The notes under the pieces: model-generated
Seen by the model: the letters and a program-made list of their open reading frames with translations, nothing else
Told to the model about the DNA's origin: nothing
Databases searched by the model: none
Origin: an uncultured Bacilli bacterium
Lineage (GTDB): Bacteria; Bacillota_I; Bacilli_A; RF39; UBA660
DNA length: 53,374 bases
Assembly: GCA_944332695.1 (NCBI GenBank)
Contig: CALVKL010000001.1
Coordinates: 1 to 53,374 of the forward strand
Reading direction: 5' to 3'
Shown here: positions 415-44,753 of the stretch, one piece after another
Position numbering within the stretch: position 1 is the first letter of the stretch
Layout: every line of letters begins with the position of its first letter
Translations under genes and position numbers: made by a program

Positions 415-2152
415 AGATTTATATATTGATTTTTTTATAAGTAAAGGACATAAACAAATACCATCAGCTCCAGTTGTACCGGAAAACGATCCTTCCGTTT
501 TATTTAATACAGCGGGAATGCAACCTTTAATTCCATATTTGATGGGTCAACCTCATCCTTACGGAACAAGATTAGTTGATTATCAAAAATGTATCAGAAC
601 TAACGATTTAGATAGTATTGGTGATAAAACACATCATACCTTTTTTGAAATGTTAGGTAATTGGTCATTGGGAGATTATTTTAAAGAAGAAAGTATTAAT
701 TATAGTTTTGAGTTTTTAACTAAAGTATTAAATATACCCATTAATAAATTAGCTGTAACTGTTTTTAAAGGAGAAGGAAATATACCGCGTGATGATGTTT
801 CAGCTAAAGTTTGGAAAAGTTTAGGTATTAAAGAAGATAGAATTGCTTACTTAGGTAAAGAAGATAATTTTTGGATTGCTGGAGATTCCGGACCATGTGG
901 ACCAGATACAGAAATATTTTATTTTAGAAGTGATGATGAAATACCTCAAAAATTTGATCCAAAAGATGATAGATGGGTTGAAATATGGAATAATGTTTTT
1001 ATGGAATTTTATAAAGATAACAATGGTAAAATAACAGAATTACCTAAAAAAAATGTTGATACTGGTATGGGCTATGAACGAGTAGTTGCCGTTTTAGAAG
1101 GTGTTACTGATAATTATTTATCAAGTGTATGGATTGATATTGTTAGAAAAATCGAGGAATTATCTAATTATTCATATGAAGAAAATCCCGCTAGTATTAG
1201 AATAATTGCTGATCATATAAGAACTGCAATCTTCATATTAGGAGATGAAGCTGGTATAAAACCATCTAATACTGATCAAGGATATATTTTAAGAAGATTA
1301 ATTAGGAGAGCAATAAGACATGCTAAAAAACTTGAAATCACAGATAATAATTGGGAAGTTATTATTGCCAATATGATAATTGAAAAATATCAAAAATATT
1401 ATCCTGAATTAGTTAAAAATAAAAATGTAATTTTAGATGAATTGACTAAAGAAAAAAACAAATTTGATAAAACTTTAGCTAAAGGATTAAAAGAATTTGA
1501 AAAAATTACTAATCATTTAGACGATAATGTTTTAAATAAAGATTTAGCTTTTAAATTGTATGATACATATGGATTTCCTATCGAATTAACAGTTGAACTT
1601 GCAAAAGAAAAAGGAATTGAAGTTGATCAATTAGGTTTTAAAGAAAAATTTAAAGCGCATCAAGAGTTATCAAGAACTGCTTCAAGTGGTAAATTTAAAG
1701 GTGGTTTAGCTGGTGATTCAGAAAAAGAAATAAAATATCATACAGCGACTCATTTGTTGAATGCCGCTTTAAAAGTAGTTGTCAATAAAAATATTCATCA
1801 AAAAGGAAGTAATATTACTAGTGAAAGAATGCGTTTCGATTTTTCATGTGATCATAAATTGACTGATGAAGAAAAGCAAAAAACAGAACAATTAGTTAAT
1901 AAATGGATTAGTGAAGGATTAAATGTAACTGTTATGGAAATGAGTAAAGAACAAGCTCTAAAATCAGGAGCAGAATGTATGTTCATTGAAAAATATCCAG
2001 ATATTGTAACAGTTTATAGCATTGGTGATATCTCTAAAGAACTATGTGGTGGACCACATGTTAAAAATACTAAAGAGTTAGGTAATTTTAAAATCATCAA
2101 AGAAGAGGCAAGCAGTGCGGGGGTAAGAAGAATAAAAGCTATTTTAGAATAG
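404..2152 (+). CDS. alaS: alanine--tRNA ligase, unusually short form (~582 aa)
   Basis: AlaRS core motifs are present (FNTAGMQP, FFEMLGNWSLGDYFK, GPCGPDTEIF, DTGMGYERV), as is the editing core HTATHLL...CGGPHV. ATG 404 follows GAAGGTG and overlaps the cmk stop. The locus is syntenic with Bacillus alaS-yrzL-yrrK. Confidence 0.9.
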   Translation: MNLKDLYIDFFISKGHKQIPSAPVVPENDPSVLFNTAGMQPLIPYLMGQPHPYGTRLVDYQKCIRTNDLDSIGDKTHHTFFEMLGNWSLGDYFKEESINYSFEFLTKVLNIPINKLAVTVFKGEGNIPRDDVSAKVWKSLGIKEDRIAYLGKEDNFWIAGDSGPCGPDTEIFYFRSDDEIPQKFDPKDDRWVEIWNNVFMEFYKDNNGKITELPKKNVDTGMGYERVVAVLEGVTDNYLSSVWIDIVRKIEELSNYSYEENPASIRIIADHIRTAIFILGDEAGIKPSNTDQGYILRRLIRRAIRHAKKLEITDNNWEVIIANMIIEKYQKYYPELVKNKNVILDELTKEKNKFDKTLAKGLKEFEKITNHLDDNVLNKDLAFKLYDTYGFPIELTVELAKEKGIEVDQLGFKEKFKAHQELSRTASSGKFKGGLAGDSEKEIKYHTATHLLNAALKVVVNKNIHQKGSNITSERMRFDFSCDHKLTDEEKQKTEQLVNKWISEGLNVTVMEMSKEQALKSGAECMFIEKYPDIVTVYSIGDISKELCGGPHVKNTKELGNFKIIKEEASSAGVRRIKAILE

Positions 2153-2267
2153 CTTTTATTATTAAAAAAATAGTAATTGTAATCAATATTATGTAAAAAA
2201 ATATATATTATTGTTGTAAAATAGTAATTTTTTTGATAAAATTAAGTTGTAATAGGGTGGTGTTAAT

Positions 2268-2507
2268 ATGGGCGAAACAAAAATATTCACAACTGATGAG
2301 ATAGAAGCTGAGCTAATTACTGAAACAATAAAAGAGGTAGTTGAAATACTAGAAGAAAGAGGTTATAATGCTAAAAATCAATTAGTCGGTTATCTTATGA
2401 GTGGTGATCCAGGATATATATCAAGTCATAAAGAAGCTCGAAATAAATTGACTAAATTTGAAAGAACTAGAGTTTTAGAAGTTTTAGTCGATAAATTTAT
2501 TAAATGA
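2268..2507 (+). CDS. IreB-family regulatory phosphoprotein (UPF0297, YrzL-like)
   Basis: 79 aa with LEERGYNAKNQLVGYLMSGDPGYISSHKEARN, typical of UPF0297. SD GGGTGG lies upstream, and its position after alaS matches Bacillus. Confidence 0.8.
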   Translation: MGETKIFTTDEIEAELITETIKEVVEILEERGYNAKNQLVGYLMSGDPGYISSHKEARNKLTKFERTRVLEVLVDKFIK

Positions 2508-2908
2508 AATATTTAGGTTTAGATTTAGGAACTAAGACGTTAGGATTGGCTATTTCTAACGGAACAATTGCATCTTCTTTAAAAACCATTCATTATAATA
2601 ATTTAGATGCATTGATTGAAGAACTTAAACAAATTATCGAGGAAGAAAAAATTGACTTGCTAGTTTTGGGTTTGCCCAAAAATATGAACAACACGATTGG
2701 ATCAAGAGCTAACGAAACATTAGAATTTAAAAAAAAATTAGAGCAATTAAATTATAAAGTAGTTTTACAAGACGAAAGATTATCGACAGTTTCGGCTCAT
2801 AATTATATGATTGAAGGTAATTTATCAAGAAAAAAAAGAAAAGAAAAAGTTGATAGTTTAGCTGCCACTATTATATTACAAACATATTTAGATAAGAGAG
2901 GAAATTAA
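2504..2908 (+). CDS. ruvX: putative pre-16S rRNA nuclease / Holliday junction resolvase-like YqgF
   Basis: MKYLGLDLGTKTLGLAIS... DERLSTVSA: YqgF/RuvX signature. Start overlaps the upstream stop (ATGA). Confidence 0.9.
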   Translation: MKYLGLDLGTKTLGLAISNGTIASSLKTIHYNNLDALIEELKQIIEEEKIDLLVLGLPKNMNNTIGSRANETLEFKKKLEQLNYKVVLQDERLSTVSAHNYMIEGNLSRKKRKEKVDSLAATIILQTYLDKRGN

Positions 2909-2910
2909 TT

Positions 2911-3201
2911 ATGAAAGAAGAACAAATGAAATTTAAAGTAATAGATGATAAAGGTAAGGAAATTGAATGTGAAGTTTTATTTACATTCGAATCAGATGAA
3001 ACAAAAAATAACTATATTGTATATACCGATAATACAACTGATGAACAAGGAAATACTAAAGTATATGCTTCAATTTACACACCAGGGGAAGAAGATTTGA
3101 ATTTAAAACCAATTGAAACAGAAAAGGAGTGGAAAATAATTGAAACTATCTTAAATGAGCTACAAGAAGAAGTAAAATCTAATATGGAGGATAGCGAGTA
3201 A
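2911..3201 (+). CDS. DUF1292 family protein (YrzB-like)
   Basis: 96 aa acidic protein (ECEVLFTFESDETKNNYIVYTD) in the conserved position between ruvX and mltG. Confidence 0.75.
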   Translation: MKEEQMKFKVIDDKGKEIECEVLFTFESDETKNNYIVYTDNTTDEQGNTKVYASIYTPGEEDLNLKPIETEKEWKIIETILNELQEEVKSNMEDSE

Positions 3202-3220
3202 CAATTACTCGTTTTATGCT

Positions 3221-4273
3221 ATGAAGAAGTATGTTAATATATATATTTTTGTAATAACTTTTTTGGTTATTGTTATTACTGTTAGTTGTGTTTCATATAA
3301 CATTGGAATTAGTCCAGTTAGCAAAGAAGATAAAGAAGTAATTCTTGAAGTTAAAGAAGGTAGTAGCTATTTATCGATTGCTAATGAATTAAAAGAAAAT
3401 AATTTAATTAGATCAGAGACATTTTATAAAATATATATTAAAATTTTTAACCCTAGTAAATTAGAAAAGGGTACTTATACTTTAAACGAAAACATGGGAG
3501 TAAAAAAAATAGTCGAAACTTTAGAAAAAGGTACTTTCGCAGAAACAATTTCTTTTGTTATTCCCGAGGGAAAACATATAACTGATGTTGCTAGTTATGT
3601 AAGCAAGGTAACCAATTATACTGCTGATGAATTACTTTCTTATTGGCAAAATCAAGAATTTTTAAATACTTTAATTAATAAATATTGGTTTATTACTGAT
3701 GAAATTAAAAACGATAATTTAAGATATAGTTTAGAGGGTTATTTTTTCCCAGCAACTTATGAAATTTTTAAAGATAGTAGTATAGAAGATTTAACTTATA
3801 AAATGTTAGATAAAATGGATGAAGTTTTATCAAAATATAAAAAAGAAATTGAAAGTAGTAAATATACAGTTCATGAATTATTGACATTAGCTTCAATAGT
3901 TGAACATGAAGCAATATTAGATGAGGATCGTCCAATGATTGCCCAAGTTTTTTATAATAGATTAAATAAAGGAATGAAATTAGAAAGTTGTGCAACTATT
4001 GGTTATGCAATAAATGAATGGAAATTAACTTATACTAATAATGATTTAGCTGTTGATTCACCATACAATACTTATTTTTATTATGGACTACCAGTGGGTC
4101 CTGGAGGACTACCTGGTGAGGCAAGCATCAAAGCTGTTTTATATCCTAAGTCAAATAATTATTTATTCTTTTTAGCAGATGTATTTGATAGTAGTTCAAC
4201 TAAAACATACTATTCTGAAACTTATAGTGAACATCAACAAAAATGCTTAATTTATTTGGGGTACGAATGTTAG
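3221..4273 (+). CDS. mltG: endolytic murein transglycosylase MltG (YceG family)
   Basis: N-terminal TM helix followed by a YceG domain (LASIVEHEA, VFYNRL, LESCATIGY, SPYNTY..GLPVGPG). Confidence 0.9.
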   Translation: MKKYVNIYIFVITFLVIVITVSCVSYNIGISPVSKEDKEVILEVKEGSSYLSIANELKENNLIRSETFYKIYIKIFNPSKLEKGTYTLNENMGVKKIVETLEKGTFAETISFVIPEGKHITDVASYVSKVTNYTADELLSYWQNQEFLNTLINKYWFITDEIKNDNLRYSLEGYFFPATYEIFKDSSIEDLTYKMLDKMDEVLSKYKKEIESSKYTVHELLTLASIVEHEAILDEDRPMIAQVFYNRLNKGMKLESCATIGYAINEWKLTYTNNDLAVDSPYNTYFYYGLPVGPGGLPGEASIKAVLYPKSNNYLFFLADVFDSSSTKTYYSETYSEHQQKCLIYLGYEC

Positions 4274-4836
4274 AAAATATTGAAAAATACGCTAAAGAAA
4301 ATAATATTCCAATTATGCAAAAAGAAGGAATCGAATTTTTAATAGAATTTATTAAAAAAAATAAAATAAAAAAAATCTTAGAAATCGGAACAGCAATTGG
4401 TTATTCTGCTATCAAAATGGCTTTAGTTGACGATGATATTGAAATTATATCAATTGAACGAGATAAAGAAAGATATATAGAGGCAGTTAGAAATGTTAAT
4501 TTATTCAATTTACAAAATAGAATTAAATTAATTAATCAAGATGCATTTGATGTCGAATTAACTGATAAATTTGATCTGATTTTTATTGATGCAGCTAAAG
4601 CTCAAAGTATTAAATTTTTTACGAAATTTGAAAAAAATTTAAATGATAATAAGTTTATTATAACTGATAATATCAATTTTCATGGCCTAGTTAACAGTAA
4701 CGAAAATATGAGTCGTAATTTAAAGCAATTAATTAAAAAAATAAAAAATTATATTGAATTTTTAAAAGAAAATAATCAATATATAACAACTTTTCATGAT
4801 ATTGGTGATGGTATTAGCGTAAGTGTTAAGAGGTGA
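4267..4836 (+). CDS. trmR: class I SAM-dependent O-methyltransferase, YrrM/TrmR-like
   Basis: ILEIGTAIGYSAIKMA, IFIDAAKAQ and ITDNINFHGLV align closely with my recollection of B. subtilis YrrM. Syntenic position after mltG. ATG 4267 preferred over 4243. Confidence 0.75.
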   Translation: MLENIEKYAKENNIPIMQKEGIEFLIEFIKKNKIKKILEIGTAIGYSAIKMALVDDDIEIISIERDKERYIEAVRNVNLFNLQNRIKLINQDAFDVELTDKFDLIFIDAAKAQSIKFFTKFEKNLNDNKFIITDNINFHGLVNSNENMSRNLKQLIKKIKNYIEFLKENNQYITTFHDIGDGISVSVKR

Positions 4837-6272: not shown

Positions 6273-7034
6273 ATGGAATTAAAAGAAATCGAAAGAAGTA
6301 TTATCAAAAAATATCGAAAGAAAATATTTGTTCCTTTTGTTAAAGCAATCAAAGAGTTTAATTTAATAGAGGAAAACGATAAAATTGCAGTTTGTATTAG
6401 TGGTGGTAAAGATTCATTTTTATTAGCTAAATGTATGCAAGAAATAAAAAAACACGGTAAATTTAATTTTGATTTGGAATTTATTGTGATGAATCCTGGA
6501 TATAGTGAAGAAAACATCAATAAGATAAAAGAAAATTTAAATCATTTAAATATTGATGCTCATATATTTGAAACACCAATTTTTGAATTTGCTGATACAA
6601 CGGACAATCCATGTTATATGTGTGCGAAAATGCGTAGAGGTTATTTATATAGTTATGCTAAAAGTATCGGTTGTAATAAAATAGCTTTAGGACATCATTT
6701 TAATGATGTTATTGAAACAGTTTTATTAAATATGATTTTTAACGGTAATTTTAGTAGTATGGTTCCAAAAATAAAAAGTACTAATTTTGAAGGAATGACT
6801 TTGATTAGACCTCTTTATTATGTTAAAGAAGAAGATATTATCAAGTGGAGTAAATCTAATGAATTAGAATTTTTAGATTGTGCGTGCAAAGTTACTAAAA
6901 AGAACAGTGGTCAAAGAATAGTTATTAAAAACTTAGTTAATGAATTAAATAAAATATATAGTAAAGCTGATATTAACATTATGACCAGTACAAAAAATGT
7001 CAATTTAAATACTATTTTGGGGTATAAAAAATGA
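6273..7034 (+). CDS. PP-loop ATPase, TtcA-family tRNA thiolation protein
   Basis: PP-loop CISGGKDS, cysteine motifs CYMC and CAC, and GHHFND. Start is uncertain (ATG 6249, 6267 or 6273). Confidence 0.75.
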   Translation: MELKEIERSIIKKYRKKIFVPFVKAIKEFNLIEENDKIAVCISGGKDSFLLAKCMQEIKKHGKFNFDLEFIVMNPGYSEENINKIKENLNHLNIDAHIFETPIFEFADTTDNPCYMCAKMRRGYLYSYAKSIGCNKIALGHHFNDVIETVLLNMIFNGNFSSMVPKIKSTNFEGMTLIRPLYYVKEEDIIKWSKSNELEFLDCACKVTKKNSGQRIVIKNLVNELNKIYSKADINIMTSTKNVNLNTILGYKK

Positions 7035-7186: not shown

Positions 7187-7265
7187 CAAACAATTAACAT
7201 TTTGGGAAAGTATGAAATTTTAATTATGACTAGTATATTTAGTAAAAGTATGGTATAATATAAAT

Positions 7266-7447
7266 GTCTAGGGATAGCGACAAGCTCATTTAGAAAAACC
7301 GACTAATTAACGAATATTGGGAGTCTAATTCATTAACGGTGTTGAATGCTCAATTAATTTTGAGAATCCTAAAATTGATGATGTGATGCCCACCTGGTAG
7401 AGACTAGGTTTTATCGTTAAGAGCCCGCATTCTTGGACTTTTTTTTT
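7266..7447 (+). ncRNA. candidate ~180-nt transcript or structured RNA of unknown class (alternatively decayed coding DNA)
   Basis: Extended -10 TGgTATAAT at 7251-7259. The stretch has higher GC than other spacers and ends in T10 at 7438-7447. It sits just before an independent tkt promoter (TGaTATAAT, 7459-7467). No ORF. Confidence 0.25.
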
Positions 7448-24068: not shown

Positions 24069-24340
24069 TATCTAAAATTATTTGTAGTTAATGTGGTAAA
24101 GAAATTGATGGTAATTTAAAGGTATGTAGTAATTGCGGATTTTGTTTAAAAAAAGAAAAGAGAAAAAACTAAATAAAATTTTTTAGTTTTTTAGTAAGCG
24201 ATACTGATGAATAAAATTTTAATATATTCATTGTTTTTTGCCTATATCATTATCCAACATGAGTTTATTATATTTTTAATTTTAAAAGGTGATATTAGCA
24301 ATTTAAAATGGACAATTAATAACAAGTTTTTATCATAAAA
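24065..24340 (+). pseudogene. decayed zinc-ribbon membrane protein remnant
   Basis: ..IICS*CGKEIDGNLKVCSNCGFC.. has an in-frame TAA at 24089-24091 inside the first CxxC. A hydrophobic segment (MNKILIYSLFFAYIII, from 24207) lies in another frame. Confidence 0.35.
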
Positions 24341-24414
24341 AATGATATCATATATTTTATCATTAATGGTGGTATTGTTTTGAAGAAAAATAAAATATAT
24401 AATTAATTAAAATA

Positions 24415-24431
24415 TGTCAAATAATGTCAAA
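24415..24431 (+). promoter_or_regulatory. tandem heptad TGTCAAA-TAA-TGTCAAA (CtsR-operator-like) upstream of rpoZ promoter
   Basis: Matches RGTCAAA-NAN-RGTCAAA except for the first base of each heptad. Lies ~15 nt upstream of a TTGCTA-17-TATTAT promoter. Confidence 0.3.
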
Positions 24432-24496
24432 TTTTAGTATTTCAATTGCTAATAAACTAATTTTGCCTTATTATTAATATAGGGAAGGTGATTAAA

Positions 24497-24691
24497 ATGA
24501 TTTATCCATCTATTGATAAACTACTTAATCAAGTTGGTTCAAAATATTTATTGGTAAATATTGTTTCTAAAAGAGTTCATGAAATGGAAGAAACTAATTA
24601 TTATCAGTTAAAAGAGAATGAATATGTTTCTAAAAAACCAATTGGTCGAGCTCTAGAGGAAGTGGCTAATAATAAAATTAAATTAAAGTAG
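24497..24691 (+). CDS. rpoZ: DNA-directed RNA polymerase subunit omega
   Basis: MIYPSIDKLLNQVGSKYLLVNIVSKRVHEM is a canonical RpoZ N-terminus. ATG 24497 sits behind GGGAAGGTGA. Confidence 0.85.
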   Translation: MIYPSIDKLLNQVGSKYLLVNIVSKRVHEMEETNYYQLKENEYVSKKPIGRALEEVANNKIKLK

Positions 24692-24708
24692 TTGACATAT
24701 GTTGACAT
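24691..24708 (+). promoter_or_regulatory. tandem GTTGACAT repeats, 10-bp phased, inverted relative to the 24415 pair
   Basis: GTTGACATAT GTTGACAT lies directly after the rpoZ stop. Further TTGAC/GTCA half-sites occur at 24722-24745. Confidence 0.25.
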
Positions 24709-24782
24709 TATTACAAATAAAATGTCTTGACTTAATTGTTTGTCATATAATACAATGGAACTGTACAAGGATAAAAAGGTAC

Positions 24783-24816
24783 AAAAAAGAACTATTCCCC
24801 CCCTGAGGAATAGTTC
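24783..24816 (-). terminator. rho-independent terminator for sspI (minus strand)
   Basis: Perfect 10-bp stem GAACTATTCC/GGAATAGTTC with a C7-containing loop. The T6 tail is on the minus strand only. Confidence 0.65.
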
Positions 24817-24929
24817 GCATAAAAGAATAAAAAGGGGTTGGCTAGTGTGATACTAGCACCAATTCGCATACTTCCGAATTGGTACTATATATACTAATTG
24901 AAAAGATTGATTTTGTCAACCTTTTTTTG

Positions 24930-25136
24930 TTATTTTAATGAATTTTTTAAAGTATTGATAATATACTCTTTACTATTTTCGTCGCTATTTTCCCACAACA
25001 CTTCAAAAAAAACTCCTAATCCTGGTAAAGTAATTTCATCTTTTTTTTCAATTGAAGCTTCAATTGATGCCTTTATTTCACTCTTATTAGCATCTTTAAA
25101 ATTATTCAAAATATGTTGTCTAATATTAATATTCAT
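24930..25136 (-). CDS. sspI: small acid-soluble spore protein SspI
   Basis: MNINIRQHILNNF...LPGLGVFFEVLW matches my recollection of B. subtilis SspI (LPGLGVLFEVIW). Start is one of three clustered ATGs. Confidence 0.8.
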   Translation of the reverse strand: MNINIRQHILNNFKDANKSEIKASIEASIEKKDEITLPGLGVFFEVLWENSDENSKEYIINTLKNSLK

Positions 25137-25236
25137 AACCATCATTTCCTTTCGTTTTTATTTTGTCTAAAAAAAATAAAAATATGTATTTATTTTTATT
25201 TCAAGGTAGTGTATAATATAATTGGAGGTAAATAAT

Positions 25237-27670: not shown

Positions 27671-27919
27671 TTACATCATTTGATAATTTGATGTGTTGTA
27701 AGAATTATTAGAATTAATAATTCCTTCAAGGGTATTTACTCTTTTTTCTAAATTAGATATTCTAGTCATAATATCAGATTGATTATCAGTTTGATAATTC
27801 ATATTTTGATAGTTCATATTTTGGTAAGGCGTATTAGGTATTGGCATTAATGGCATAACAGGAAATTGTCCCATATTATAGATTGGCATATTACCCCCAC
27901 AATTGCGATCTTTTTTCAT
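27671..27919 (-). CDS. small Q/N/M/Y-rich protein with short coiled coil (possible spore-associated protein)
   Basis: AGGAGG SD. Low-complexity NMNYQNMNYQ repeat plus ISNLEKRVNTLEGII. A CATATAAT-type -10 lies upstream on the minus strand. Confidence 0.5.
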   Translation of the reverse strand: MKKDRNCGGNMPIYNMGQFPVMPLMPIPNTPYQNMNYQNMNYQTDNQSDIMTRISNLEKRVNTLEGIINSNNSYNTSNYQMM

Positions 27920-30655: not shown

Positions 30656-30756
30656 ATCATTTTAAATTACAATTGATTAATTGATAATTGCCTTGTTTTT
30701 GTTGTATACTTTAAATACAATATAACGAGTTAATTTAAAGATAGGAGAGATAAAAA

Positions 30757-31889
30757 ATGAAAAAATTAACGATATACAAAAATGGGGGGGCAATTTACTA
30801 AATAAAGCATTTACGTTAATAGAGTTATTGGCTGTAATAATCATATTAGCAATAGTAGCATTAATAGCCACCCCAATCATATTAGATGTAGTAGATGATG
30901 CTAGGATTTCCGCAGGTAAGTCAGAATCTAATATGATTTTAAATGGTATAAATAATTATTGTGCAACAAGTGAAATGAAAAAACAAATGGGAACATTAAC
31001 AAGTGATGATATTGATTGTTCTAATAAAACATCATTTACTGAAGAAGAGATAAAGAAAATGGTTAATTTAGGAAATGCTGAAATATTAGAAATAATATAT
31101 AAAGCTGAATTATTATGGCTAAAAGTAAAAAGTAATGATCATATATATTCATTACAAGATAATCAAATGATTGAAGGAGATTTAGAAAAACCAAAACTGG
31201 ATTATAGTGGAGCTAATAAACCAGAGTTATTAGATAATATGATACCAGTTAAATATGATGGAACAAATTGGGTATATACAACAGATGATCAGAAATCATG
31301 GTATAATTATGATTCTAAAGAATGGGCTAATGCCGTTATATTAAATAGTGGCGTAAGTAAAAATGTTGGCGATACTATAAGTGAAGATGATATTGCGCTA
31401 TGGTATGTATGGATACCGAGATATAAATATCAACTATTTAATGCTGATAATGGAAGTATAGAACCATTAGAAATACAAATAACTTTTGAAAATGGAACCT
31501 CTTCAGCCGGAACAGTAAGTTGCGTTGATGCCGTAAGTGGTTCAGGAGATAGTAGTGAAACGTGTACTAATGCTACTAATGGAAATTGGTATACCCATCC
31601 AGCATTTACTTTTGGTACTCAAGAATTGACTGGAATATGGGTAGGCAAGTTTGAAATAAGTACAACAGATAGTACTTGCAATAGTAGCCCAAATAGTGCG
31701 AATTGTAATAAATCAGAGCATACAATAACAATAAAACCCAATGTAAGTAGTTTAAGATATACAACAATATCAAATTTATTTACAGCAATTCAAGGAATAA
31801 GTACAACATATAATTTAAATGGTGATAGCCATATGATGAAAAATAGAAATTATATTTGCAGTATCTTATTTAGATACTGTTTTTTTTAA
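30757..31889 (+). CDS. type IV pilin-like protein (prepilin N-terminal methylation motif), out of frame at a G7 tract
   Basis: AGGAGA SD plus ATG 30757. The KAFTLIELLAVIIILAIVALIATP motif is in the +2 frame, reachable only by a +1/-2 change in GGGGGGG (30784-30790). The large C-terminal domain has WYVWIPRYKY and THPAFTFG..LTGIWVGKFE. Confidence 0.65.
30784..30790 (+). repeat. G7 homopolymer (candidate slipped-strand switch)
   Basis: Directly read from the sequence: aaaaatGGGGGGGcaat. Confidence 0.95.
31859..31887 (+). terminator. rho-independent terminator overlapping the last codons of the pilin-like ORF
   Basis: CAGTATCT-tattt-AGATACTG followed by T8. Confidence 0.75.
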
Positions 31890-44155: not shown

Positions 44156-44219
44156 TTAATGCTAATTTTTTATGTACAAAAGATCATTAATCGCATATAT
44201 TAAAATGAGAGGTGATAAT

Positions 44220-44753
44220 ATGTCTTTATATAAAGAAATAGTCACTAAAGCAGTTATTGGTAAAGGTAAGAAATACTTTAAAAATAATTATAAAATAACT
44301 ACTAGTGACCAGCCAACGACAATATTAGGATGTTGGGTAATTAACCATAAATTTAAAGGATATAAATCGGGCGATAAAATAGGTGTTGATGGATCGTTTG
44401 ATGTTAACATTTGGTATTCTTATGAAAATGATTCTAAAACAACTGTTGTTAACCAAAAAATTGAATATAATGATTTATTCAATGTTAGATTAAAAGAAAA
44501 TGCTGATTTAAATAGTGAAACAGATATTATTGTTAGAACTTTAAGTCAACCAACTTGTATGGGGGTTAATATATTAGATAATAAACAAATTTCTTTTGAT
44601 ATTGAAAAAGAATTAGGTGTTGAAATAGTTGGCGAAACAAAGGTTAAAATTGCAATTGAAGAAGATGAAGAACCTTGGGATGAAATTGATGATGAAATAA
44701 CAGATGAAGATTTAAAAGAGATAGATAAAATTGATGAAAATTATATAAAATAA
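44220..44753 (+). CDS. cotE: outer spore coat morphogenetic protein CotE
   Basis: MSLYKEIVTKAVIGKGKKYF..ILGCWVINHKF..NIWYSYEND..VGETKV plus an acidic tail. Closely parallels B. subtilis CotE as I remember it, and it lies near miaB as in Bacillus. Confidence 0.8.
   Translation: MSLYKEIVTKAVIGKGKKYFKNNYKITTSDQPTTILGCWVINHKFKGYKSGDKIGVDGSFDVNIWYSYENDSKTTVVNQKIEYNDLFNVRLKENADLNSETDIIVRTLSQPTCMGVNILDNKQISFDIEKELGVEIVGETKVKIAIEEDEEPWDEIDDEITDEDLKEIDKIDENYIK

Follow-up and report, generated by a model that had tools for sequence, protein, structure and literature searches.

A poly-G tract in the prepilin leader of a truncated gene from an uncultured Bacilli bacterium: a probable phase switch in a family of retroelement-diversified proteins

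Homopolymer contingency loci are textbook material in Neisseria, Haemophilus, Campylobacter, Helicobacter, and Mycoplasma; to our knowledge, they are hardly documented in Gram-positive spore-formers or in prepilin-led proteins. Here, we describe a run of seven G residues (G7) in the leader of a prepilin-like gene on a 53,374-nucleotide (nt) stretch of DNA from an uncultured Bacilli bacterium (GenBank assembly GCA_944332695.1, contig CALVKL010000001.1, positions 1 to 53,374, forward strand), hereafter the window, together with its counterparts in homologous genes. An earlier reading of the window made from its letters alone (the sequence-only reading) had proposed that the run is an ON/OFF switch operated by strand slippage. 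Our analyses make it probable that the run is a slipped-strand contingency tract inherited from the gene family, here in the OFF phase, on a gene copy that has since lost its functional end. The open-access subset of the literature that was searched did not yield any account of a prepilin leader with a homopolymer switch, whether alone or combined with a diversity-generating retroelement (DGR).

Several described systems share parts of this arrangement. For Neisseria, Jonsson et al. are said to have placed, in 1991, the poly-G run of pilC in the signal-peptide coding region. Phase variation of pilC1 and pilC2 proceeds by a genic poly-G tract of G9-20 (PMC5953494). The likeness to the present locus lies in a genic poly-G near the 5' end of a gene for a type IV pilus-associated adhesin, where slippage shifts the frame between ON and OFF. 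Neisseria PilC is a Sec-exported tip adhesin and assembly factor of a Gram-negative pathogen in which switching has been measured experimentally, whereas here the tract lies in the class III (prepilin) leader of uncultured, probably spore-forming Gram-positive organisms, and switching is predicted from sequence. The poly-G contingency genes of Campylobacter jejuni, an organism without mismatch repair, switch at 1e-4 to 1.6e-3 per division and favor G9/G10 (PMC8355987). Its genome, like the window, is AT-rich, and rare G/C homopolymers (~G8-G11 there, with a mode of G10 here) mark phase-variable genes for surface structures; its gene classes differ (glycosylation, capsule, restriction-modification), and its lack of mismatch repair is established. 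In the Mollicutes, low-G+C relatives of the Bacilli, a poly-A near the start of the Mycoplasma hominis adhesin gene vaa acts as a frameshift switch. Mollicutes switches differ in being poly-A tracts in lipoprotein adhesins, with neither a prepilin leader nor a DGR.

A second set of comparisons concerns the 3' end of the gene. As in known DGR variable proteins (Bordetella phage Mtd, Thermus TaqVP, Treponema TvpA), the variable region of homologues of the window gene differs from its template only at template adenines. DGR diversification of pilus adhesins is known from Bacteroides type V pili (bioRxiv 10.1101/2024.11.15.621889), and GspG-type pilin domains with a variable region were "scarcely represented" in one survey (PMC11661182). 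Unlike in the known DGR proteins, the carrier here is a type IV prepilin-like N terminus, and some of the targets have a predicted 5' poly-G switch. The [AG]/FTL[IV]E motif (the slash marks the cleavage site), the Glu at +5, and the N-terminal hydrophobic helix are shared with type IV pilins and pseudopilins (ComGC, GspG, PilE); unlike major pilins, the family proteins have 500-800 amino acids (aa) and a large lectin-like or DUF6273-type head, which brings them nearer to minor or tip pilins.

Anatomy of the leader and its G7 tract

The 5' part of the locus has the following features (positions in the window):

30681-30710, + strand: promoter-like site, TTGATA-18 nt-TATACT, from a consensus scan (10/12 matches; putative function)
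30743-30748, + strand: Shine-Dalgarno (SD) sequence AGGAGA, 8 nt 5' of the ATG
30757-30801, + strand: start ATG (30757-30759) and OFF-phase frame of 14 codons, MKKLTIYKNGGAIY, ending at TAA 30799-30801
30782-30784, + strand: second ATG, whose G is tract base 1; in the third frame and without an SD sequence
30784-30790, + strand: G7 homopolymer, the frame-setting tract, uninterrupted and between the start codon and the prepilin motif
30801-30869, + strand: prepilin cleavage/methylation motif and hydrophobic helix (N-K-A/F-T-L-I-E-L-L-A-V-I-I-I-L...), with F+1 at 30810 and E+5 at 30822

The coordinates that the sequence-only reading had given for the SD sequence, the ATG, the 14-codon frame with its TAA, and the G7 run were all confirmed. 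So was its statement that the pilin frame has no start codon ahead of the motif: the frame is open from 30726 (after TAA 30723) to 31889, and its first ATG/GTG/TTG is TTG 30828, within the hydrophobic helix, where the called product P0001 begins. The phase toggles with single units of the tract, G8 or G5 being ON from the SD-ATG and G7 being OFF. The G8/G5 product reads MKKLTIYKNGG(G)NLLNKAFTLIELLAVIIIL, i.e., MKKLTIYKNGG(G)NLLNKA/FTLIELLAVIIILAIVALIA, with the restored leader MKKLTIYKNGGGNLLNKA/FTLIELL. The expectation that such a length would give a normal leader was borne out by a near-identical, in-frame allele that exists at a homologous locus, L025 (MKKLTNCKNGGGHLLNKA/FTLIELL). The repaired window protein exceeded the curated cut-offs of both PF07963 N_methyl (24.1 bits against 21.2; residues 16-38) and TIGR02532 (26.8 bits against 16.3; residues 17-39) and has the [AG]/F-x-x-x-E motif with ~20 hydrophobic residues; its scores fell far under the ComGC and GspG equivalog cut-offs.

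The second ATG is made of the A-T of an AAT codon and the first G of the tract, and it is in frame with the pilin at G6/G9; G7 is the sole phase that is OFF for both the SD-ATG at 30757 and the ATG at 30782. An ATG abutting the tract is likewise present in L015, L025, L027, and L028 and absent in L014, L026, L029, and L030, and gene callers chose it as the start of P0086, P0249, and P0251 (MGGGH...). Further upstream, the motif (T)GTATACT (TGTATACT) also precedes the paralogues at L014, L016-L018, L020, and L025.

Recurrence, length, and phase of the tract in homologues

The sequence-only reading had held a G7 run to be very unlikely by chance in DNA this AT-rich. The window has a G+C content of 25.8%, and 30784-30790 is its only G run of at least 6 on the + strand; one C7 lies at 24797-24803. 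For G7 on either strand, 2 were observed where dinucleotide shuffles led us to expect 0.30, and 5 of 100 shuffles reached 2. The rarity of G7 within the window is by itself of only moderate significance; the strong case rests on the recurrence of the tract in homologues.

Loci were gathered by protein homology, by one DNA scan for the tract-flank pattern, and by look-up of homologous proteins. The pattern scan of metagenomes led to a single locus, L025 (an ON allele), and a scan of viral contigs found no locus. Eleven further genes from other uncultured Bacilli metagenome-assembled genomes (MAGs) and from metagenomes (L014, L015, and L025-L032, with L026 giving two) carry a pure poly-G tract of G7-G13 at the same aligned position in the leader, between conserved flanks (AAATTARCAAATAGC...tract...ATTTACTAAATAAWGC). 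A comparison of tract length with relatives, which the sequence-only reading had named as a check, thus found a tract of variable length in homologous genes. With the window included, the lengths are G7 (three genes), G9, G10 (five genes), G11, G12, and G13, with a mode of G10. The relatives are as follows:

L025: G9, ON; leader as given above; intact open reading frame (ORF) of 683 aa
L026, first gene: G11, ON
L027: G12 followed by AGG, ON
L029: G10, ON
L014: G13, OFF; second frameshift near 6670
L026, second, tandem gene: G10, OFF
L028: G10, OFF
L030: A + G7, OFF
L031: G10, OFF
L032: G10, OFF
L015: G7, phase not assignable, the upstream sequence being an adapter chimera

Four relatives are therefore ON and six OFF, or seven OFF when the window is counted. 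A share of about two-thirds OFF fits an unconstrained hypermutable tract and is absurd for ordinary genes. L030 (A + G7) and L032 (G10) are 94.6% identical over 2.1 kb and differ in tract length; as the closest pair of tracts, they place the polymorphism above strain level. L031 (G10, OFF) shares 89.5% identity with L026 (G11, ON); the products of both belong to a single protein cluster at 90%, whose members include calls with a full leader as well as N-truncated ones. A protein search with a leader profile returned many more fragments with GGG or GGGG leaders, mostly short contig-end fragments that are good for leader peptides and not for phasing.

Codon usage and paralogues bear on what is selected at this position. 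GGG is the rarest Gly codon in the 46 ORFs of the window (48/769, 6.2%), and none of the 38 Gly-Gly pairs in window genes is encoded by GGG-GGG, yet all leader tracts are pure G, uninterrupted while the flanking columns average 62% identity. Paralogues with homologous leaders have no Gly there (L021, MKKNKNLLTNAFTLIE; L005, MKKLTNCKVKNQGFTLIE; P0004, MFKLTNGKIKEYDFSNKAFTLIE), and the leader has 18-23 residues in tract-bearing proteins versus 4-6 in tract-less paralogues. Because GGG is rare elsewhere, the tracts are pure, and the tract-less paralogues have no Gly run, selection acts on the DNA run and not on the peptide; a G run under no selection would not stay unbroken for long where the genome is AT-rich. 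Codon usage and the tract-less paralogues led us to reject selection for a poly-Gly peptide. Of the 12 G runs of at least 7 in the 315 kb examined, counted over both strands, 10 lie in prepilin leaders, a count inflated by loci that were found through their tract; at the loci found by protein homology only (L001-L024), 2 of 20 prepilin motifs have a tract. The G7 in L004 is no more than the SD sequence of efp. An artefact of two-colour chemistry or of adapter read-through, suggested by the adapter at the start of L015, was ruled out as well, since homologous leader codons flank the tract in long contigs from different assemblers.

Two of the tract-bearing contigs have peculiarities of their own. 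In the tandem gene of L026 (2650-2760), a G10 is followed by a 36-nt, relatively GC-rich insert (ATTTTATCCACCTTCCGATCAATTCTCGGACAGTCT), a G6, and then the usual CATTTTACTAAATAA, making two G tracts in one leader; the insert may be real or an assembly artefact. At L015 (1-53), an Illumina TruSeq adapter (GAACTCCAGTCAC-ATCACG-...CGTCTTCTGCTTG) and an A9 are fused just 5' of the G7, a chimeric contig end in a public MAG.

The gene family and the truncated copy in the window

The gene, called pilin-like in the sequence-only reading, is not an ordinary pilin gene; it belongs to a multi-copy family of DGR variable proteins with prepilin leaders. There are thousands of homologues (5,883 of the scored candidates have E <= 0.001), typically 510-580 aa long and nearly all with the prepilin motif; MAGs bearing the label "uncultured Bacilli bacterium" have several of them per genome. 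L001 encodes P0004, which shares 65% identity with the window gene. The final 149 nt of the P0004 gene (1880-2028) recur 434 nt further on (2314-2462), and at each of the 10 positions where these variable and template repeats differ, the downstream (template) copy has an adenine. The DGR cassette there (1880-4469) continues after the template repeat with an ORF bearing a MutS_I domain, bAvd, and a reverse transcriptase (RT; RVT_1). In an AlphaFold model of P0004 (predicted local distance difference test score [pLDDT], 70.8), TaqVP (5vf4) was the only significant PDB match, with E = 5e-5 and a template modeling (TM) score of just 0.31-0.42; the next PDB match was Bordetella phage Mtd, and residues 19-72 matched PilE1 (8pfb) in sequence. 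Given the template-adenine mismatch pairs, the adjacent bAvd and RT, and the match of the model to TaqVP, the family therefore consists of prepilin-led proteins with a putatively lectin-like head whose C-terminal tip is hypermutated by a DGR. The accessory ORF with MutS domain I, placed between the template repeat and bAvd/RT in L001, is unusual.

L030 combines the two features on one gene, a 5' poly-G tract and a 3' mutagenic variable region. All 19 of its 19 mismatches between variable and template repeats (2273-2795) are at template adenines, and the gene has therefore been under active diversification. Apart from the tract, the gene is intact in relatives L025, L028, L030, and L032, and in several OFF alleles an ORF of 510-527 codons is otherwise unbroken (P0092, P0086). 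Because of these intact long ORFs and the heavily diversified variable region of L030, these OFF alleles do not appear to be decaying genes.

The phase of the tract also leaves its mark on gene calls. P0001, P0086, P0092, and P0249-P0254, OFF-phase members all, are called from an internal TTG/GTG or from the ATG abutting the tract, with the calls of P0001, P0086, and P0092 starting within the leader or beyond it. Because OFF-phase genes are called from internal starts, database proteins of this family often have neither their true leader nor an N_methyl annotation, and the practical upshot is a systematic mis-annotation of the family. The signature K-N-GGG-x-LLNK-A/FTLIE, encoded by pure G, would offer a simple handle for finding such genes in metagenomes.

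Some relatives are built differently at the N terminus. P0019, P0059, P0063, and P0074 have another, non-prepilin hydrophobic N terminus (MNNKGFAVSGIIYSILILFLIL...), yet from residue ~149 (SGANKPELL...) onward P0019, the closest C-terminal relative of P0001, shares 90% identity with the window gene. The P0019 mosaic suggests modular recombination between family members.

Toward its 3' end, the window copy departs from the family, with the following features:

30792-31844, + strand: coding part homologous to the family, taking in the pilin-like head, the middle domain, and no more than the beginning of the lectin-like domain; ends ...NLNGDSHMMKN
31844-31845, + strand: apparent deletion junction (~1 kb lost) joining ATGATGAAAAAT to an element that normally lies 3' of the template repeat
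31845-31889, + strand: novel 14-codon tail, RNYICSILFRYCFF, from formerly non-coding DNA, with stop TAA at 31887-31889
31858-31888, + strand: terminator-like hairpin with a 9-bp stem (31858-31880) followed by T8; overlaps the region of the new tail and stop

The frame that the sequence-only reading had followed to 31889 as a normal gene is thus homologous to the family only as far as 31844, where the tblastn match with P0004, P0006, and P0019 stops exactly. Intact homologues read on past this point as MEWGAVAYLSHSKYG... (MEWGAVAYL...) for 170-190 more residues. In L001, L006, and L030, the counterpart of the sequence after the junction (AGAAATTATATTTGCAGTATCTTAT...) is an element situated ~130 nt downstream of the DGR template repeat (matches at L006 3677-3713, 92%; L001 2590-2644, 81%; L030 2924-2944), and an equivalent of the hairpin and T run also stands 3' of the same element in L001. 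Both sides of the junction have the microhomology ATG(A/G)TGAAAA(A)T in common. The simplest reading is that a ~1-kb microhomology deletion removed the 170-190 terminal codons with the variable region, as well as the template repeat and some of the spacer. Misassembly at 31844/31845 is unlikely, the shared ~12 nt being far below assembler k-mers. The deleted part holds most of the lectin-like domain, and for that reason the product of the window copy presumably could not be a working adhesin; were this copy switched ON, the protein made would still be a truncated one. In L007 (6983-6988) and L012 (6623-6628), a G6 occurs in the conserved ATG GAA TGG GGG GCA (MEWGA), directly 3' of the point at which the homology of the window breaks off.

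Competing explanations, significance, and genomic context

Taken together, the conserved position of the tract, its range of G7-G13, the occurrence of ON and OFF alleles, and the non-random use of GGG strongly back the idea of an ON/OFF switch at the level of the family; for the window copy itself, the truncation tells against it. The tract would be a standing feature of one lineage within a multi-copy family of uncultured, AT-rich, probably spore-forming Bacilli. Placed between the SD-ATG and the A/FTLIE cleavage motif, it would gain or lose G by slipped-strand mispairing at replication and so set the frame; we infer this mechanism, its rate, and its reversibility. The window gene as assembled is in the OFF phase (G7), and the ~1-kb microhomology deletion most likely then left an inherited, still slippage-prone tract on a defunct, truncated gene.

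Several observations weigh against a working switch, above all in the window copy. Tracts of at least 10 in short-read assemblies may be off by one, making some of the ON/OFF calls for relatives uncertain, and G7 is at the low end of the tract lengths known for fast switching. No strain-level relative of the window locus was found: P0001 forms a cluster of one, the next match is 67% identical, and exact look-ups of P0001 and P0019 returned no contig on record. The window copy, truncated at 31844, is not an otherwise intact gene with a functional ON product. Its variable and template repeats are absent from the window, apparently lost with the deletion, and tblastn found no match to a DGR RT or Avd anywhere in the 53 kb. 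With the deletion and the missing DGR genes, the copy appears to be decaying, and the frameshift may no longer matter to the cell.

The same losses, together with a G7 that belongs to the shortest tract class found, are what would be seen in a plain pseudogene, in which the G7 frameshift and the 3' deletion are two fixed lesions, the tract being too short and the gene too damaged to switch; L014 likewise pairs an OFF tract with its second frameshift. We regard this explanation as unlikely. The frameshift falls precisely at a site where 11 homologues have a tract of variable length, some of them ON and some OFF, and so does not look like a random decay mutation, and the remaining 1.05 kb of the pilin frame has no further stop or frameshift in DNA of 26% G+C. 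The pseudogene explanation overlaps with that of an inherited contingency tract, and the sole difference between them is whether the tract still slips.

Recoding is a less probable alternative still: slippage of RNA polymerase, or -1 ribosomal slippage of tRNA-Gly on GGG GGG G, would supply a share of in-frame product at any DNA tract length, and the tract would tune the level of expression instead of turning it OFF. It would accommodate the finding that 6 of the 10 phased relatives and the window are formally OFF, several of them with intact long ORFs; a P-site slip from GGG 30787-30789 to GGG 30786-30788 is cognate, and the downstream RNA folds somewhat better than shuffled sequences (z = -2.6). 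Yet in the predicted stem the partner of the G run is an ACCCCA at ~30868 that homologues do not conserve, and recoding would lead one to expect a single conserved length and frame, whereas lengths vary, true ON alleles exist, and the two-thirds share of OFF alleles is what an unselected hypermutable tract would yield. Canonical -1 programmed ribosomal frameshifting was ruled out, since the zero frame (T GGG GGG) offers no X XXY YYZ heptamer and homologues do not share the structure.

Very improbable, finally, is an assembly or sequencing error in which the true tract is G8 and the 5' end ordinary and in frame: homopolymers are error-prone, the window is a MAG contig, and the adapter and poly-A fusion in L015 shows that reads are imperfectly cleaned in such data sets, but a consensus of short reads can normally be trusted over a run of seven, OFF lengths recur at this site in assemblies made independently by different studies and with different assemblers (L014, L028, L030, L031, and L032), and an error would leave the existence of pure-G tracts of 7-13 unexplained.

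If the tract is a contingency switch inherited within the family, its kind is known, namely phase variation by a simple sequence repeat; the notable twist would be that the same genes are DGR targets. A two-tier system of variation in uncultured spore-forming gut Bacilli can be proposed tentatively, with somewhat less confidence than the switch itself: DGRs would hypermutate the 3' lectin-like tips, a subset of the genes would be gated ON or OFF by poly-G in the leader, and a cell might thereby display a changing subset of diversified pilus-tip adhesins, with truncated OFF copies such as that of the window being debris or possibly recombination donors. If confirmed, two independent generators of diversity would be linked on one family of surface adhesins. 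The window locus itself is of lesser weight here, its gene being truncated.

The window is a whole MAG contig and, by gene content, ordinary chromosome, with genes for aminoacyl-tRNA synthetases, TrmB, PrsA, MraZ/RsmH/PBP, a Clp ATPase, MiaB, UppS, CdsA, and RseP. Directly upstream of the pilin-like gene is a YtxH-like protein and directly downstream a PcsB-like M23 peptidase. No pilus machinery, including prepilin peptidase and assembly ATPase or platform, was found among the annotated ORFs of the window, and Rfam and tRNA scans gave nothing near the pilin-like locus. Because of a homologue of the outer spore coat protein CotE (44172-44753, E = 3.5e-52), the lineage (uncultured Bacilli of 26% G+C) is probably a spore-former, consistent with the spore-forming Firmicutes context supposed by the sequence-only reading.

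Three further observations concern other parts of the window. An 82-aa ORF on the - strand (27671-27919) is rich in N, Q, M, Y, and P, has NMNYQ repeats (MPIYNMGQFPVMPLMPIPNTPYQNMNYQNMNYQ...), and gave no Pfam match. The C7 at 24797-24803 forms part of the loop and stem of a perfect hairpin (GAACTATTCC-CCCCCTGA-GGAATAGTTC), within a ~1.15-kb stretch separating RadC from LemA (24069-25221) in which no ORF reaches 120 aa. A 6S (SsrS) RNA at 7262-7443 (68 bits) overlaps the annotated TTG start (7433) of a transketolase ORF by ~10 nt.

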